Below, piece after piece: positions 20,562 through 40,060 of a stretch of DNA of 64,000 nt (its first letter is position 1; each line of letters opens with the position of its first letter). The DNA lies in IMG/VR virus record IMGVR_UViG_3300008255_000002, one strand, 5' to 3'. Origin of the DNA: a virus. Both the position numbers and the translations under genes were made by a program. The notes under the pieces were generated by a model. That model was not told the origin of the DNA. It did no database searches and worked only from the letters and a program-made list of their open reading frames with translations.

Positions 20562-20600
20562 ATAAAATAAAAAAAATCCCGCCATAAGGCGGGATAATTA
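20562..20600. terminator. Terminator between convergent gene blocks
   Basis: Perfect stem ATCCCGCC-ATAA-GGCGGGAT (20576-20595) with A-run on the left (U-tract for minus-strand transcripts). Confidence 0.85.
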
Positions 20601-20601
20601 T

Positions 20602-21060
20602 TTACCAGTCAAATTTACGTTTAATAAATTCTACAAGTAATGTTCTTAGTACAATAGATTCTCCATAACTAATGCTATGCCCAACCTTTGTATTAACACC
20701 ATCTCTTTGTACAGATACTTCTAAAAAGAAGTTTTGTTTTTCTGTATTTTTTGTTAATTTAATAACTGTGTTTCCTTTTGGATTTTGGTGATATAATCCT
20801 TTTCCAAGATTCTCACGATATCCATCTAAAACTGTTAGTAGGGCACCAACATCATTTTCGTTAAGAAGTGCGGTAACATTATTATCCCAATCAAATTTGG
20901 CATTATCGTTATCGCTTGGAACTTCGTTTGCCATTACTAAAAATAACATTACTTTGTTAAATTTTTTGTCGTCCTTTTGAACTTCTTTTGTGCGGATCTG
21001 AAATTGCGATGCAGACCCTTTACCTTTAAACGGTTTATAAATTCTAAAATCTTGTGACAT
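20602..21060 (-). CDS. Whirly-like single-stranded nucleic-acid-binding protein
   Basis: IYKPFKGKGSA, FDWDNNVTALLNENDVGALL, LYHQ, FFLEVSVQ, ISYGESIVLRTLL...FDW match, in order, the plant Whirly motifs IYKGKAAL, YDWS.KQ.FSLS.TEIG.L, FFHD, FFNLSVQ, VTKAEFAVL...LGW as I recall them. Confidence 0.7.
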   Translation of the reverse strand: MSQDFRIYKPFKGKGSASQFQIRTKEVQKDDKKFNKVMLFLVMANEVPSDNDNAKFDWDNNVTALLNENDVGALLTVLDGYRENLGKGLYHQNPKGNTVIKLTKNTEKQNFFLEVSVQRDGVNTKVGHSISYGESIVLRTLLVEFIKRKFDW

Positions 21061-21857
21061 TATTTATTTCTCCAATTGCTATCGTAACCCTTAATATCCT
21101 CTGTAACTTCTTTATCGTTGCAATATTTTTGAATTTCATTAAGGATAACCTTAGCTTCTCTTTCGAGAATATTGCTGATACGGTCAAACTTCATTTTATA
21201 TTCTTTTTTAACTTTATTGATAAATTTACCAATATTAATATTTGTTTCTAATGCAATTTTTTCAAGAATTGATAGTTGGATTTCATTGATTACTTCAGAA
21301 GTAATATCATCTGAGGCGACACCATTAACCATTTCTTCGCTTGCATTACATTGAATTGCTAAAGCATTGATAAAACATCGGCTTTTTGCGCGAGTTTCTG
21401 CCATTGCCGTAACAAATTTACCAAACCTAGGATCTTGAATATTATATTGAACTTCTTCAAATCCAGGAAGTTTTTTCAGAATAACATATGCATCAGCAGA
21501 ACCAACAGAAGTTCTTTCAACTCCATCTTTACCTAAAATACGAATAGAATAAGTATTAGATGACATAATAACATCTGAATTGATAGTTGTTTGTCTATCT
21601 TCATCCTGATCAATAATATCACCTTCTAATAGATAAATTAATCTCCTTAATCCAAACATTCTAGGATTACCATAGCATAATTCGTCTGATGTTAAATGAC
21701 TTAATACATATTGTGTCCATTCAGGATCAGCTTTTGTTGACGTTCTTTTCTTTATTTCTAAATCTGAAGATGGTTCATCATCAACAACAATAACATCTGT
21801 TTCTTGTGAATCTTCTAGTTCAACCATATCTTCTATTTCTTGTTTTTTTCTTGCCAT
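21060..21857 (-). CDS. Rad52/ERF-like single-strand annealing protein
   Basis: GSADA...TAMAETRAKSRCFINALAI...SEEM core typical of SSAPs, plus helical C-terminal domain; TAATG coupling to Whirly-like gene. Confidence 0.6.
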   Translation of the reverse strand: MARKKQEIEDMVELEDSQETDVIVVDDEPSSDLEIKKRTSTKADPEWTQYVLSHLTSDELCYGNPRMFGLRRLIYLLEGDIIDQDEDRQTTINSDVIMSSNTYSIRILGKDGVERTSVGSADAYVILKKLPGFEEVQYNIQDPRFGKFVTAMAETRAKSRCFINALAIQCNASEEMVNGVASDDITSEVINEIQLSILEKIALETNINIGKFINKVKKEYKMKFDRISNILEREAKVILNEIQKYCNDKEVTEDIKGYDSNWRNK

Positions 21858-21862
21858 ATAAA

Positions 21863-22669
21863 TTATAACTCCAATATAATAATTTTTTCTTCTATTTTAT
21901 TTTCTTTAATATCTTCAATTTTTTGCAATATTCTTTCAAAGGCAAGTAGCATTTTTGTTTTACTCATTTTTTGAATATGTCTAACTCGCATAACACGATA
22001 GCCAAATTGAGTTAATAAACCATTTTTTTCTCTATCTCTTTCTTGTCTTTTTTTAAATTTTTCCGGTTCATTATATACATCGATCATGTGCGCGGGACCA
22101 TCAATCTCAATACATAATAATAATTCACGAATATAAATATCTACTCTTAAATCTTCATTTGGGATAAGTGCTGTTTTTTGTGTCTCAGAAAATATATTAT
22201 TTTTTCCTAATTCGTCCACAACAAACTTTTCAAATTTAGATCCGCTACGTGAAGTTGCATTAATAGCTTTCATTCCCCTTAATACAAACTCCTTCTTTTC
22301 ATCTTCCGTCAAACTATTATAGTATTTTTTGCCCCGATCAGAGCGTTCCTTTTTTTGGGATTCATCGAGTTCGTCATACTTTTTACTTAATGTTTTCCCA
22401 ATTTTTTCTTTTGTTTCTTCTGATCTTTTAGTTCCTTTAGTGGGTGATTCTCTTTTTCCTTGATCGTATAAAAGTTGACACGCTTCTTTTTTTGAACGCA
22501 TCTGAAATCCATAATACAAGAGAGCGTTTCTAATTCTCCATTGATCAGTATTTAATTCTACAGCAATTTCATATGTAGACATTTTTTTAACTTCAAAAAA
22601 CTCATTTAGTAATTCTTTACTCCATGTAGGAGCGATTGCTTTACGTCCCATAATCCACCCCGAATTCAA
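21863..22669 (-). CDS. Homing endonuclease-like protein: HTH + NUMOD3 + Vsr/DUF559 PD-(D/E)xK nuclease
   Basis: KGTKRSEETKEKIG (NUMOD3); SKFE...RVDI...IEIDGPAH...DREKN..L...GYRVMRV. Confidence 0.75.
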   Translation of the reverse strand: MNSGWIMGRKAIAPTWSKELLNEFFEVKKMSTYEIAVELNTDQWRIRNALLYYGFQMRSKKEACQLLYDQGKRESPTKGTKRSEETKEKIGKTLSKKYDELDESQKKERSDRGKKYYNSLTEDEKKEFVLRGMKAINATSRSGSKFEKFVVDELGKNNIFSETQKTALIPNEDLRVDIYIRELLLCIEIDGPAHMIDVYNEPEKFKKRQERDREKNGLLTQFGYRVMRVRHIQKMSKTKMLLAFERILQKIEDIKENKIEEKIIILEL

Positions 22670-23102
22670 AATCTGAAACTACATCTTTTACCTCTCTATT
22701 CCAAGCATTTTCAATGATTTTTTTATGTGAATATGATCTTACAACAAGTTCTAAAGATGGATGTTGGTAAATTGATGCTAAAAATTCATATGGCAATTTT
22801 GGGTTATATCGTAGCCATTCGAGATCCCAAATATAATAAATTTTTCTTTTTGGTCCAGGGCACTTAATTAATTTTTGGGCGGTACTCAAATTTGTAGCGA
22901 TTGCAGTCCCATTCCAGCTATAACCATATACGATGTTCATTAGAGAGAATGAATGTTGTATAGGTGTGTGTGATAAGTTCTCAAAAAAGATAGCGTAATC
23001 AATATTTTGTTTAGATATTTTATTTCCTAAACACATTGAATAGAACGATAATTGAGAAGCAAAAAGATCACTTACAAAAATTCCTAATTTCTTTCTTTTC
23101 AT
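22641..23102 (-). CDS. Glycosyltransferase-like single-domain protein
   Basis: 153 aa; IAT...TA...KIYYIWDLEW pattern resembles GT-B N-terminal lobes. Confidence 0.4.
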   Translation of the reverse strand: MKRKKLGIFVSDLFASQLSFYSMCLGNKISKQNIDYAIFFENLSHTPIQHSFSLMNIVYGYSWNGTAIATNLSTAQKLIKCPGPKRKIYYIWDLEWLRYNPKLPYEFLASIYQHPSLELVVRSYSHKKIIENAWNREVKDVVSDFEFGVDYGT

Positions 23103-23109
23103 ATATCCC

Positions 23110-23530
23110 TCTGTATATTAGTGAATGTTATCCTACATACTAATACACATCGGGATAGTTCTAAAGAAGTTATTTTTTAGAAAATTGCGCACCATCCCCT
23201 TTATGGGTGAGATAGGCTTTATTTTGGTGTTGTTGTGTTTGTTATATTAGTAATAATATTTCGTGTTTTTGCCTATCTCTTTACTATTACTATTCCCGAT
23301 TTTTAGGATTTTTATTATCTCACCACTAGGTTGTTAGGTTTAGAACATTGCCTAGTTTTGTCTTTGTGATACTTACCTAAAACATACATTAGCGCGAGGA
23401 TGGTTATCGCGTTGGGTCGGTAGGATTTTGCGTACCTACTCGTTTTCTACGGGAAATACACATTGGAAAACAAAAAAAACTGCAAAAAAAAGACCGTTTC
23501 GATGACGGGTTATTACCCGGTTTTTATTTC
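23110..23530 (+). ncRNA. Candidate structured non-coding RNA (family unknown)
   Basis: About 500-bp ORF-free gap with many nested inverted repeats; G-U wobbles fit the + strand; ends in hairpin CGGGT-TATT-ACCCG plus T-tract. Confidence 0.45.
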
Positions 23531-23599
23531 CACTGTATCAAGTGGCAATTTTGTTTGTTTGTGTTATATATCAATACACTATTGTATTTTTTTTATGAG

Positions 23600-24328
23600 T
23601 TAGTTGCTCAAAAACATTCCAGATTTGTCCAAACAGAGATATAATTTTTCTTCTCTCCATATCTCGTTAACTGTCGCCCCAACATGCAAACCTAATTCTG
23701 ATGGCATAGGTGTTTTAAGGGGAAATGGTTGATTATATCCGTGTCGCATCCAACTAAAAACAATTGGTTCTATAAATTTTTGATAGAAAAACCAAATATC
23801 AAAAAATACCATTGGTTGATTTAGTTTTGGGTATTCGTGAATCCGATATTTCTTATATATTTCTTGTATATTAGAATATATTCCCCCAACTAAACCGCAT
23901 ATACCGGGCATTATAATACAATTCGTATGTGCCGCGCAATCATATATAGAATGTGCAAGCATACCAGATTCTACCCATTCCGAAACCGCATCAGCTTCGC
24001 GTGGATTAACTCGCGAATCACAATCACGAAAGATAGCGCGTTCACAATCTTTTTCATCTAAAACATTATATCGCCACGACATCGCAGCATTACGAAAATC
24101 ATCTTTCCAGTTTTTATCATTAATTCTATCAACTCCCTTGATTGGTGGGGCAATGACCAATTTTATATTCATTTCCTCTAATACACTTAGAGCCGGGCAA
24201 TCCTCGGATATGTAAACTATAGGGGTCCACCCCGGATAGTATTTTTCTATTAGGGGAAGATTTTGCAACATCCCCTCACAATACAATTTTATATTTCCAT
24301 ATAATGAAAAACTTACATATTTAGCCAT
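23600..24328 (-). CDS. Putative GT-A-type glycosyltransferase
   Basis: SFSLYG...YYPGW...MSWRY...IFRDCDSR (DxD); start taken at MAKYV. Confidence 0.55.
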   Translation of the reverse strand: MAKYVSFSLYGNIKLYCEGMLQNLPLIEKYYPGWTPIVYISEDCPALSVLEEMNIKLVIAPPIKGVDRINDKNWKDDFRNAAMSWRYNVLDEKDCERAIFRDCDSRVNPREADAVSEWVESGMLAHSIYDCAAHTNCIIMPGICGLVGGIYSNIQEIYKKYRIHEYPKLNQPMVFFDIWFFYQKFIEPIVFSWMRHGYNQPFPLKTPMPSELGLHVGATVNEIWREEKLYLCLDKSGMFLSN

Positions 24329-25139
24329 ATATATAATCCTTTCCAAACTTTCTCTCCATCTTATACCCACATTCTAAATAATATAGAATGTCCACAATTT
24401 CAAACGCTTTACATCCTGTAATAGACCACGCTGGATAATTATTAGGATAATGAATTTTAGGTATTTTTGAATTTGATAAAGATATTTGTTTAAATATTCC
24501 TATAACCCAATTTAAAAATATTTCTGTTCCAACTATAGACAATTTAAGACTTTTAGTTCCAGATTTGTTTCGTATCCATTTTATACTTCCGTCTCCTTCT
24601 ATATAACCAACTATATAAGATAAAGATTGTTCTAAAGTTAGTTTATCGGGCGGCTTTAGCGTTAAACTTTTATTTTTTGTTATATTAAAATGATTTAAAA
24701 GATCTTCTCTCCATTGTTTTGCCGACCAAAAATTAACTCGGCACATTTTACTAATATTTCCACTTGGATTAATAACTTCATAGTCTTTGATAGGACCATT
24801 AAAATTTGTTGCAATTACAAATTCTTTTAATAAAATTTTATCTGTTCTTTTTATAGATATTCCAATTCCATTACCTTTACAAAAATAACCATCAGAAGCT
24901 ATTAAACCAGCCCATTTACAACTTTCTAAGTTTTTTATATTTGAAAAGAACCATTTATCAATATTATATTTGGAATGAGCCTGACTAAGATCAGTTTTTA
25001 ATCCAAGAAAACTAGCCATTCTTTGTATTGCTTGTTTTGTTCTGGTTGGAAGTAATTTTTCTATATCATATATAGTTATGTTGCTATAATAATTTTTTAA
25101 GATTTCAACTTCTTCTTTCGTCCATCTTTGTCTTTGCAT
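24321..25139 (-). CDS. LAGLIDADG homing endonuclease with N-terminal Myb/HTH
   Basis: WAGLIASDG and YIVGYIEGDG motifs; RWTKEEVEIL N-terminus. Confidence 0.85.
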   Translation of the reverse strand: MQRQRWTKEEVEILKNYYSNITIYDIEKLLPTRTKQAIQRMASFLGLKTDLSQAHSKYNIDKWFFSNIKNLESCKWAGLIASDGYFCKGNGIGISIKRTDKILLKEFVIATNFNGPIKDYEVINPSGNISKMCRVNFWSAKQWREDLLNHFNITKNKSLTLKPPDKLTLEQSLSYIVGYIEGDGSIKWIRNKSGTKSLKLSIVGTEIFLNWVIGIFKQISLSNSKIPKIHYPNNYPAWSITGCKAFEIVDILYYLECGYKMERKFGKDYIYG

Positions 25140-25288
25140 TTTTCATTTTTATCCTTGTCTATTTTTTTATAATATTCTTTATCTGTTGGAATTGGATCTG
25201 GAATGATTTTATGTGACGGATAATCCGTTCTTTCTTCTGGTTTTTGATTTATCATTTTATCTATATCTCCAAAACTATTTTTTTTCAT
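25097..25288 (-). CDS. Hypothetical protein
   Basis: 63-aa ORF tiling the minus-strand operon. Confidence 0.5.
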   Translation of the reverse strand: MKKNSFGDIDKMINQKPEERTDYPSHKIIPDPIPTDKEYYKKIDKDKNEKCKDKDGRKKKLKS

Positions 25289-25530
25289 AGATTATTAATT
25301 ATCTCCTCTAACCCAACTCTTAATTTTGATTCACACTTGTTGCATAAATCTTTGGTTAGTAATCGAGGATGTGGTTCATCATTTGGTTTAAAAACAATAC
25401 CATCACAATATACATTAAAAAGTTGTTGTGGTGGTGGTGTTTTATCAATATGTGGATAATAAGAATTTATATCCACAGTCACAATTTTAGCATTTTCATT
25501 TCCGCAAGCATCACATGTGCAATTTTTCAT
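25285..25530 (-). CDS. Small zinc-finger protein
   Basis: CDACG...DLCNKC. Confidence 0.6.
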   Translation of the reverse strand: MKNCTCDACGNENAKIVTVDINSYYPHIDKTPPPQQLFNVYCDGIVFKPNDEPHPRLLTKDLCNKCESKLRVGLEEIINNL

Positions 25531-39412: not shown

Positions 39413-40060
39413 TTTTCTTAAGTTCTTTTATTTTACAAATCTTATAAGGGTCTTTGTCTTTATAATCATGTTTCATATAATTACTAATAATACAGAGTAA
39501 TGAATTAACTCTATTAGGTGTAAGATCGAAAACTTCTGCAACATCTTTTTTAAATAATTCTTGTTTTTCATACATCTCTGTCATATATTTTCTATATGGA
39601 GTAGTGTCTTTATCAAGGTTTACATTATAATAACCATCATTAATTCTACAAACCAATCCTGCATAATCTATTTTTTTTTTGGTGGAAGCCCAAAGTTTGT
39701 TGTGCATCCTTGGAAAAACATATTATATGGATCTTTTGATGTTAAATCTAATAACCAATTAAATACACAATTATTTATATTTAATTGTGCTACTCTATAA
39801 TTCATATCTTTATCGAGCACAACTATATTATCTTTAATTCGTGATTGACCGATTTATATACATTCTTAGCTAGACGTATAACCAATACCGTTTTGTTTCC
39901 ATAGACAAGTAATTTTGTCGCCATATTCCATATAGGAGATAATAAAAAAAGTACAACACGAAGTATCATTTCTCTATTTTCTTTATGTGGTTGTAAAAAA
40001 AGAGGATGTATTCTTATTATAAGTAATAATATATCTGAATTTATCATTTTTTTGTTTCAC
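39381..40060 (-). pseudogene. Fragmented hypothetical gene(s)
   Basis: Overlapping open stretches switch frame, one at a T10 run (39671-39680). Confidence 0.35.

Follow-up and report, generated by a model that had tools for sequence, protein, structure and literature searches.

A structured non-coding spacer with a predicted hairpin over the Shine-Dalgarno sequence of the gene that follows it in a large groundwater phage

In phage T4, e, soc, 49, I-TevI, and other genes give long early transcripts in which a hairpin closes off the ribosome-binding site, and the transcripts that start within the 5′ arm of that hairpin, at a late promoter, are translated (PMC3014915, PMC2988022). Here, we describe a locus with a comparable arrangement in a large, uncultured phage from groundwater with a GC content of ~30%. 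The DNA analyzed (the window) is a stretch of 64,000 nucleotides (nt) from the IMG/VR virus record IMGVR_UViG_3300008255_000002 (138,177 bp, ~90% complete), whose genes include a 3018-amino-acid (aa) tape-measure-like gene, rIIA/rIIB, a DNA polymerase, RNA-repair genes, and many glycosyltransferases. The element under study is a 497-nt gap without open reading frames (ORFs) at positions 23103-23599, between two minus-strand genes, P0002 upstream and P0001 downstream; positions are those of the window unless called genome positions. We tentatively prefer to read this gap as a terminator, promoter, and structured-leader region of the sense strand that would act in cis and be specific to this lineage. 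We think a free-standing antisense RNA unlikely.

The gap is the longest ORF-free gap of the window, as had been noticed when only the letters and a list of ORFs were inspected (the sequence-only reading). No remnant ORF was seen in it: the longest stop-to-stop frame fully within the gap is 49 aa, and frames of 59 and 83 aa extend a few bases into P0002. Against dinucleotide shuffles, the whole gap folded far better than expected by chance on both strands. The minimum free energy (MFE) was -111.3 kcal/mol on the minus strand (z = -5.78) and -121.7 kcal/mol on the plus strand (z = -2.84), with 0 of 100 shuffles as good in either case, and the folding energy on which the sequence-only reading had staked its claim of a structured RNA is thus outside the shuffled distribution. 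Among the eight ORF-free gaps of at least 330 nt in the genome, this is the only strongly structured one; the next best has a z of -2.8, and the rest range from -1.7 to +1.4. A 200-nt sliding scan gave z values near 0 for flanking coding sequence and showed the signal to be concentrated at 23000-23400. The complementary arms that had been listed are all in place, namely, the nested stems ATCCTA (23130)/TAGGAT (23304), ATCGGGATAGT (23149)/ACTATTCCCGAT (23289), which has one bulge, and GAGATAGGC (23209)/GCCTATCTC (23271), the alternative pair GGTGAGATA (23206)/TATCTCACC (23316), the crossing pair TAGTAATA (23248)/TATTACTA (23285), and the hairpins CTAGG/CCTAG, AGCGCGA/TCGCGTT, GGTAGG/CCTACT, CCACT/AGTGG, and CGGGT/ACCCG with its T-tract.

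No known RNA family accounts for this structure, in agreement with the sequence-only reading, which had recognized no tRNA, tmRNA, RNase P, or group I core. The Rfam 15 covariance models, which include group I/II introns, riboswitches, GOLLD, ROOL, HEARO, 6S, tmRNA, and RNase P, gave no match in the whole window at gathering thresholds. At E values up to 10, the region 22900-23800 returned two hits only, of 12-13 bits compared to thresholds of 62-90 bits, and ARAGORN found no tRNA or tmRNA gene in the window. A group I intron splitting a gene was also rejected, because no Rfam model matched and both flanking proteins are complete. Stand-alone homologues cover the whole of P0001, the alignments starting at residue 2-5, and P0002 has its own stop codon and is covered by relatives over its residues 11-222. 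What had been called a novel large non-coding RNA is, then, a real, unusually structured, non-coding element without a family; its proposed free-standing antisense form is not supported.

The sequence-only reading took the structure to be antisense to the surrounding operon and hence plus-stranded. By the thermodynamic evidence, the more likely carrier is the minus strand, the sense strand of the operon. For the 349 nt of 23100-23448, z was -4.6 on the minus strand compared to -3.5 on the plus strand, and for a core at 23187-23410 it was -4.51 (0 of 200 shuffles as good) compared to -2.04 (5 of 200). The predicted ensemble is also much tighter on the minus strand. Over 23100-23448, its diversity was 20.8 (shuffles, 70 ± 14.5) compared to 56 on the plus strand, or 0.06 compared to 0.16 per nt. 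The minus-strand centroid structure nearly equals the MFE structure, whereas the plus-strand centroid for the whole gap, at -99 kcal/mol, is 22 kcal/mol above the MFE of -122 kcal/mol. Together with a minus-strand hairpin that buries the Shine-Dalgarno sequence of P0001 and three minus-strand copies of the motif GTGTATT, these values speak against the antisense assignment.

The hairpin forms the last part of the gap, directly before P0001, and two others resemble it outside the window.
23104..23157, minus strand: predicted 21-bp hairpin of -24.2 kcal/mol, with the P0001 Shine-Dalgarno sequence GAGGG (23107-23111) in its 3′ arm
22641..23102, minus strand: P0001, the downstream gene, 153 aa, of unknown function, first gene of a conserved module, with its ATG at 23102
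Genome 21717-21782 (L094:418-483): long hairpin of -24.8 kcal/mol in the leader of the gene at genome 21780
Genome 22581-22645 (L094:1282-1346): long hairpin of -17.5 kcal/mol in the leader of the adjacent gene at genome 22643
The P0001 hairpin ends one base short of the start codon, and its predicted pair probabilities are 0.92-0.99, which puts the Shine-Dalgarno sequence in a stable helix directly before the gene. Such stability is unusual in this phage. When the sequence from -70 to +3 was folded for all 171 genes, the leaders averaged -7.4 ± 4.3 kcal/mol; the leader of the gene at genome 21780 was the most stable of all, and that of P0001 came next. In each of the three long leader hairpins, the 3′ arm holds the Shine-Dalgarno sequence and the 5′ arm a GTGTATT at 43-46 nt from the start codon. 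The three cannot be aligned with one another in any meaningful way and are analogous instead. The genes behind the two other hairpins gave no Pfam or PHROG match, and a scan of IMG/VR for the hairpin-family pattern gave 68 matches, all at chance level and none before a gene start. By analogy with T4, the P0001 hairpin may be a gate on the ribosome-binding site, and it belongs to a small class within this phage.

The motif GTGTATT was found independently of the hairpins, among the most intergenic-enriched strand-specific words of the genome. Three copies lie in the gap, all on the minus strand.
23573..23579, minus strand: GTGTATT copy 1, 21 nt past the P0002 stop codon, a stop distance seen also at two other intergenic copies
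23455..23461, minus strand: GTGTATT copy 2, directly 3′ of two U8 tracts; candidate start point of a long leader
23142..23148, minus strand: GTGTATT copy 3, in the 5′ arm of the 21-bp hairpin, 46 nt before the P0001 ATG
Genome-wide there are 29 copies, of which 12 fall in the 6.5% of the sequence that is intergenic compared to ~1.9 expected (~6-fold), and 10 of these 12 are on the main coding strand. All 10 of the copies that were checked face the next gene, six of them lie 37-61 nt before the start codon, and some have no hairpin. Because it is enriched between genes, faces them, keeps this distance from their starts, and occurs in part without a hairpin, the motif behaves like a promoter element; judged by its distribution, GTGTATT is a candidate short promoter element specific to this phage, with no conserved -35 partner. 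Another copy in the window lies at 39768 on the minus strand. One more is found in the second most structured large gap of the genome, a 580-nt gap between divergent genes at genome 8254-8833 (z = -2.8 on the genome plus strand) that also holds an 11/21-nt tandem repeat.

Read on the minus strand from P0002 toward P0001, the remainder of the gap is made up of the following parts.
23600..24370, minus strand: P0002, the upstream gene, which bounds the gap at its 5′ side; 256 aa, glycosyltransferase-like, with no counterpart in the relatives' loci compared
23466..23566, minus strand: cluster of three small hairpins (23530-23545, 23506-23519, and 23493-23503) with a closing A-rich/U-rich helix, z = -2.8; candidate terminator or insulator after P0002
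23484-23491 and 23472-23479, minus strand: two U8 tracts, 3′ of the small-hairpin cluster
23420..23439, minus strand: predicted hairpin GUAGG/CCUAC
23187..23410, minus strand: 224-nt closed multi-helix core with an outer helix 23396-23410/23187-23199 and a centroid nearly equal to the MFE structure
23359-23384 and 23325-23356, minus strand: core hairpins inside the outer helix
23316-23324/23206-23214, minus strand: predicted inner 9-bp helix of the core, GGUGAGAUA/UAUCUCACC
23294-23308, minus strand: predicted 4-bp hairpin of the core
23282-23292/23248-23258, minus strand: predicted 11-bp helix of the core
About 23215-23247, minus strand: predicted A/C-rich single strand of the core
23159..23182, minus strand: predicted hairpin UUCUAAA/UUUAGAA

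From this arrangement we infer that RNA is made from the gap, that GTGTATT serves as a promoter, and that translation of P0001 is gated. The small hairpins and the two U8 tracts would probably terminate or insulate transcription coming from P0002, and the promoter-like GTGTATT copies at 23579, 23461, and 23148 would start transcripts of their own. In the leader of the longer ones, the 224-nt multi-helix domain (23410 to 23187) would follow, and the 21-bp hairpin (23157 to 23104) would then base-pair the P0001 Shine-Dalgarno sequence; with that sequence paired, the long transcripts should therefore hold P0001 closed for translation. Transcripts starting from the third GTGTATT copy, within the hairpin, would be missing its 5′ arm and hence be translatable. 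Cleavage of the 21-bp stem by RNase III would be an alternative route to opening it. As for the core, a role as an mRNA-stabilizing or protein-binding leader domain is a guess. That the core and the hairpin together make up a new kind of riboregulator, without a relative in Rfam or in current sequence collections, has a rather small chance of being right; such a regulator would gate translation of the Whirly/annealase cassette either as a leader that senses a ligand or a protein or as a stand-alone RNA released by processing. The 224-nt core is a clean candidate orphan RNA with structure.

The position of the gap bears on this reading. Downstream of it, P0001, a 268-aa nuclease-like protein, a Rad52-like annealase, and a Whirly protein form a conserved module (20602-23102) whose order is kept in distant relatives (e.g., L002 and L013). 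Synteny with relatives is present on the downstream side of the gap and absent on the upstream side, so the gap marks the junction of a conserved recombination module with foreign genes, and at such a junction a new control region would be needed. In relatives, the P0001 homologue overlaps the gene before it or directly adjoins it at 69 of 80 IMG/VR loci and in all five further contigs. The element is absent from the ~85 relatives of P0001, and in the 10 of them that have a gap before the P0001 homologue, this gap showed no similarity and no excess structure. The relatives are themselves distant. Protein searches gave nearest identities of ~43% for P0001 and 35% for P0002, no close relatives of P0001, P0002, or the DNA polymerase were found in IMG/VR, and a blastn search with 22600-24400 against 50,697 phage records had no match. 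Comparison of the gap with 84 related loci by nhmmer and blastn gave chance hits only, a gapped pattern of the core gave nine chance matches without extended similarity in metagenome and genome collections, and the phage genome holds no paralogous copy of the element. All other assemblies and sequencing runs with the locus show 99.9-100% identity over the gap, and contigs covering 21500-25500 from four further runs showed no differences within it. This near-identity across samples of several studies reflects a near-clonal phage and is not proof of constraint.

Several features of the surroundings were noted as well. The locus has a free-standing homing-endonuclease-like gene on either side, one of the LAGLIDADG type (24321-25139) and one HNH/DUF559-like (21863-22669). 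Other assemblies carry deletion variants of P0002 (24171-24290 of the window; loci L003, L005, L007, and L008): in one variant, 42 aa (residues 28-69) are missing from between two "NIKL" repeats, another has 10 nt in place of 37 nt, and two contigs stop at one shared place within the gene, at about 24171-24176. This suggests heterogeneity in the population or decay of the gene. In most of the distant relatives that keep its order, the module lies directly 3′ of sugar-nucleotide biosynthesis genes (FdtA, DegT, and epimerases). Three relatives have 670-880 nt without a long ORF before the P0001 homologue (L018/L019:2059-2937 and L044:2269-2940; z = -0.65 and +0.99), which may be disrupted or frameshifted coding sequence. 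At about 20575-20600, in a short gap where plus-strand tail genes meet minus-strand genes, there is a strong terminator with an 8-bp stem, ATCCCGCC/GGCGGGAT, that contains six G-C pairs and is followed by a T-tract.

A sense-strand leader region has a number of points against it. The advantage of the minus strand in z comes partly from its A/C-rich composition, whose shuffles fold poorly, and most helices are perfect Watson-Crick helices and therefore form on either strand. The sequence-only reading had remarked that mismatches resolve as G-U pairs on the plus strand; this is true there, but about as many helices are extended by G-U pairs on the minus strand, for example, the 11-bp stems 23139-23149/23112-23122 and 23282-23292/23248-23258 and the outer helix 23396-23404/23191-23199. 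Because it is balanced in this way, G-U pairing is uninformative about the strand. A canonical terminator with a stem of at least 5 bp was not found on the minus strand of the gap, where the stem before the U8 tracts has only 4 bp. The promoter role rests on a 7-mer that has no conserved upstream (-35) element beside it and is not enriched in the relatives' loci. The 224-nt core carries no assigned function. The viral, metagenome, and genome collections and the ~85 related loci yielded no diverged homologue from which covariation could be read, and no RNA run was among the sequencing runs that match the stretch. Finally, the plus strand has two terminator-like sites at the right end of the gap, compared to ~0.04-0.1 expected at the antisense coding rate by our own estimate.
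23506-23529 and 23530-23554, plus strand: terminator-like sites with 5-bp stems, each with a T-rich tail; their stems are two of the small hairpins of the 23466..23566 cluster seen from the other strand

These two sites are central to the view from which the analysis started, that of a stand-alone plus-strand non-coding RNA of ~400 nt that would begin near 23110-23130, stop at the hairpin/T-tract sites of 23506-23554, and act in trans or, since its 5′ end would overlap the P0001 translation start, in cis on that gene. The plus strand does beat its shuffles, with the z of -2.84 for the whole gap and -3.5 for 23100-23448, the element has the look of an insertion, which would suit a self-contained transcription unit, and a nested alternative fold costs it 9 kcal/mol over the MFE, compared to 19 on the minus strand. 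However, no promoter-like element was found on this strand, GTGTATT is absent from the gap in the plus orientation, the ensemble is poorly defined with a z of only -2.0 for the core, and the Shine-Dalgarno hairpin of P0001 and its two look-alikes are left unexplained. The CGGGT-TATT-ACCCG element that had been called terminator-like is present with its T-tract, but its stem is of 5 bp, as at both plus-strand sites, compared to 8-12 bp in the clear terminators of this phage. We regard such an RNA as doubtful. A more specific version, a type I toxin-antitoxin-like locus in which a structured plus-strand mRNA for a 41-aa hydrophobic peptide (23125-23250) is closed by long-range pairings, is highly improbable. 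A length of ~400 nt, alternative pairings, and 3′ terminator-like hairpins do recall hok-type mRNAs, and the hydrophobic ORF exists, but its length is within chance for a strand with 40% T (own estimate), no recognizable Shine-Dalgarno sequence precedes it, no Rfam toxin or antitoxin RNA matched, and, unlike in known loci, it would stand at the very start of the RNA, with 260 nt of 3′ tail behind it.

Two further explanations do without a dedicated RNA. The gap could be the scar of a junction, a remnant of recombination or of a decayed mobile gene in which a terminator and a promoter remain and most helices have no specific role. It lies exactly at the synteny breakpoint, near the LAGLIDADG and HNH/DUF559-like genes, no homologue was found in any relative searched, and the neighboring P0002 has deletion variants in the population. 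A decayed or random spacer, however, should not fold 4.5-5.8 standard deviations past its shuffles into one defined structure; the other seven large gaps are not strongly structured, no remnant frame was seen, and the sequence is essentially identical across the samples of several studies, which for a near-clonal phage is not proven constraint. For the gap as a whole a scar is unlikely, while for its less structured part, 23400-23599, it is a possible explanation. The other is an element that works as DNA, a replication origin, as the sequence-only reading had offered as its alternative, or protein-binding inverted repeats before the recombination genes. Within 220 nt, there are about five copies of G(A/G)GATA, distributed over both strands, and most helices are strand-symmetric perfect inverted repeats. 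A site before genes for an annealase and a single-strand-binding protein also resembles T4 ori(uvsY). Against this, the gap has no tandem or iteron repeats, only weak direct repeats, its GC content is 33.6% compared to 26-33% locally, so that there is no AT-rich unwinding region, and its arms are nested and 50-220 nt apart, as in an RNA fold and unlike close operator palindromes. A better origin candidate is an array of 38 nt × 2.6 at genome 131275-131372, and we consider a DNA-level role of the gap very unlikely; the proposal of an origin here is weak. The iteron-like array itself has a 96% match, lies among divergent small genes outside the window, and belongs to a region, genome 127.6-132.6 kb, in whose gaps the motifs TATGTAGAT and TAGGCAA recur; this region is a candidate origin or early control region.

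Within the preferred reading of a sense-strand leader, it can be asked whether the core and the hairpin form a switch, as the mutually exclusive pairings of the sequence-only reading implied. The minus-strand segment 23289..23309 can form 6 + 6 + 5 = 17 Watson-Crick pairs with 23130-23159, which comprises the hairpin's 5′ arm and its loop. By pairing with the 5′ arm, it would free the P0001 Shine-Dalgarno sequence and may thus be an anti-sequestor. In the alternative fold, a 9-bp helix, GAGAUAGGC/GCCUAUCUC, replaces GGUGAGAUA/UAUCUCACC. This geometry is plausible, and a bistable switch is possible, but it is statistically unsupported because the nested alternative fold lies 19 kcal/mol above the closed fold on the minus strand, 57 of 1,000 shuffled upstream sequences pair with the 5′ arm as well or better (p about 0.06), and by our own estimate ~1 perfect 9-bp stem is expected by chance per 497 nt of this composition.

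Compared with described systems, the gap shares with GOLLD and ROOL the format of a several-hundred-nt non-coding phage region with many predicted stems and differs from them in having no covariance-model match and no tRNA genes nearby. Its length of ~400 nt, its alternative pairings over long distances, and its small hydrophobic plus-strand ORF recall hok/sok mRNAs; unlike them, it has no Shine-Dalgarno sequence for that ORF, which is at the wrong end and of chance length, and no family match. Its resemblance to translational riboswitches and leader switches lies in an anti-Shine-Dalgarno arm that can pair with an upstream segment and in a compact multi-helix domain upstream. It departs from them in that no Rfam riboswitch matched, the open fold is 19 kcal/mol weaker, the complementarity is not significant, and the collections searched yielded no homologues that would define an aptamer.

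The T4-type hairpins (e, soc, 49, I-TevI, and segB, and mobE of Aeh1) belong to unrelated phages, and their promoter motif is TATAAATA instead of GTGTATT, for which the start sites are predicted. They also occupy short intergenic regions, whereas the present hairpin is the final part of a 497-nt structured spacer. In its design, however, it is like them: it is very stable, abuts the start codon, and pairs the Shine-Dalgarno sequence; it carries a short promoter-like element in its 5′ arm, from which transcripts would start without the inhibitory arm; and the arrangement is repeated at several genes of one phage. If this is true, GTGTATT would be a candidate promoter motif for this phage. A groundwater phage unrelated to T4 would then time translation by the T4 combination of a hairpin and an internal promoter at three or more genes, one of them at the head of a recombination cassette with a rare phage Whirly protein, and the design shared with T4 would be a convergent and general solution in large phages.

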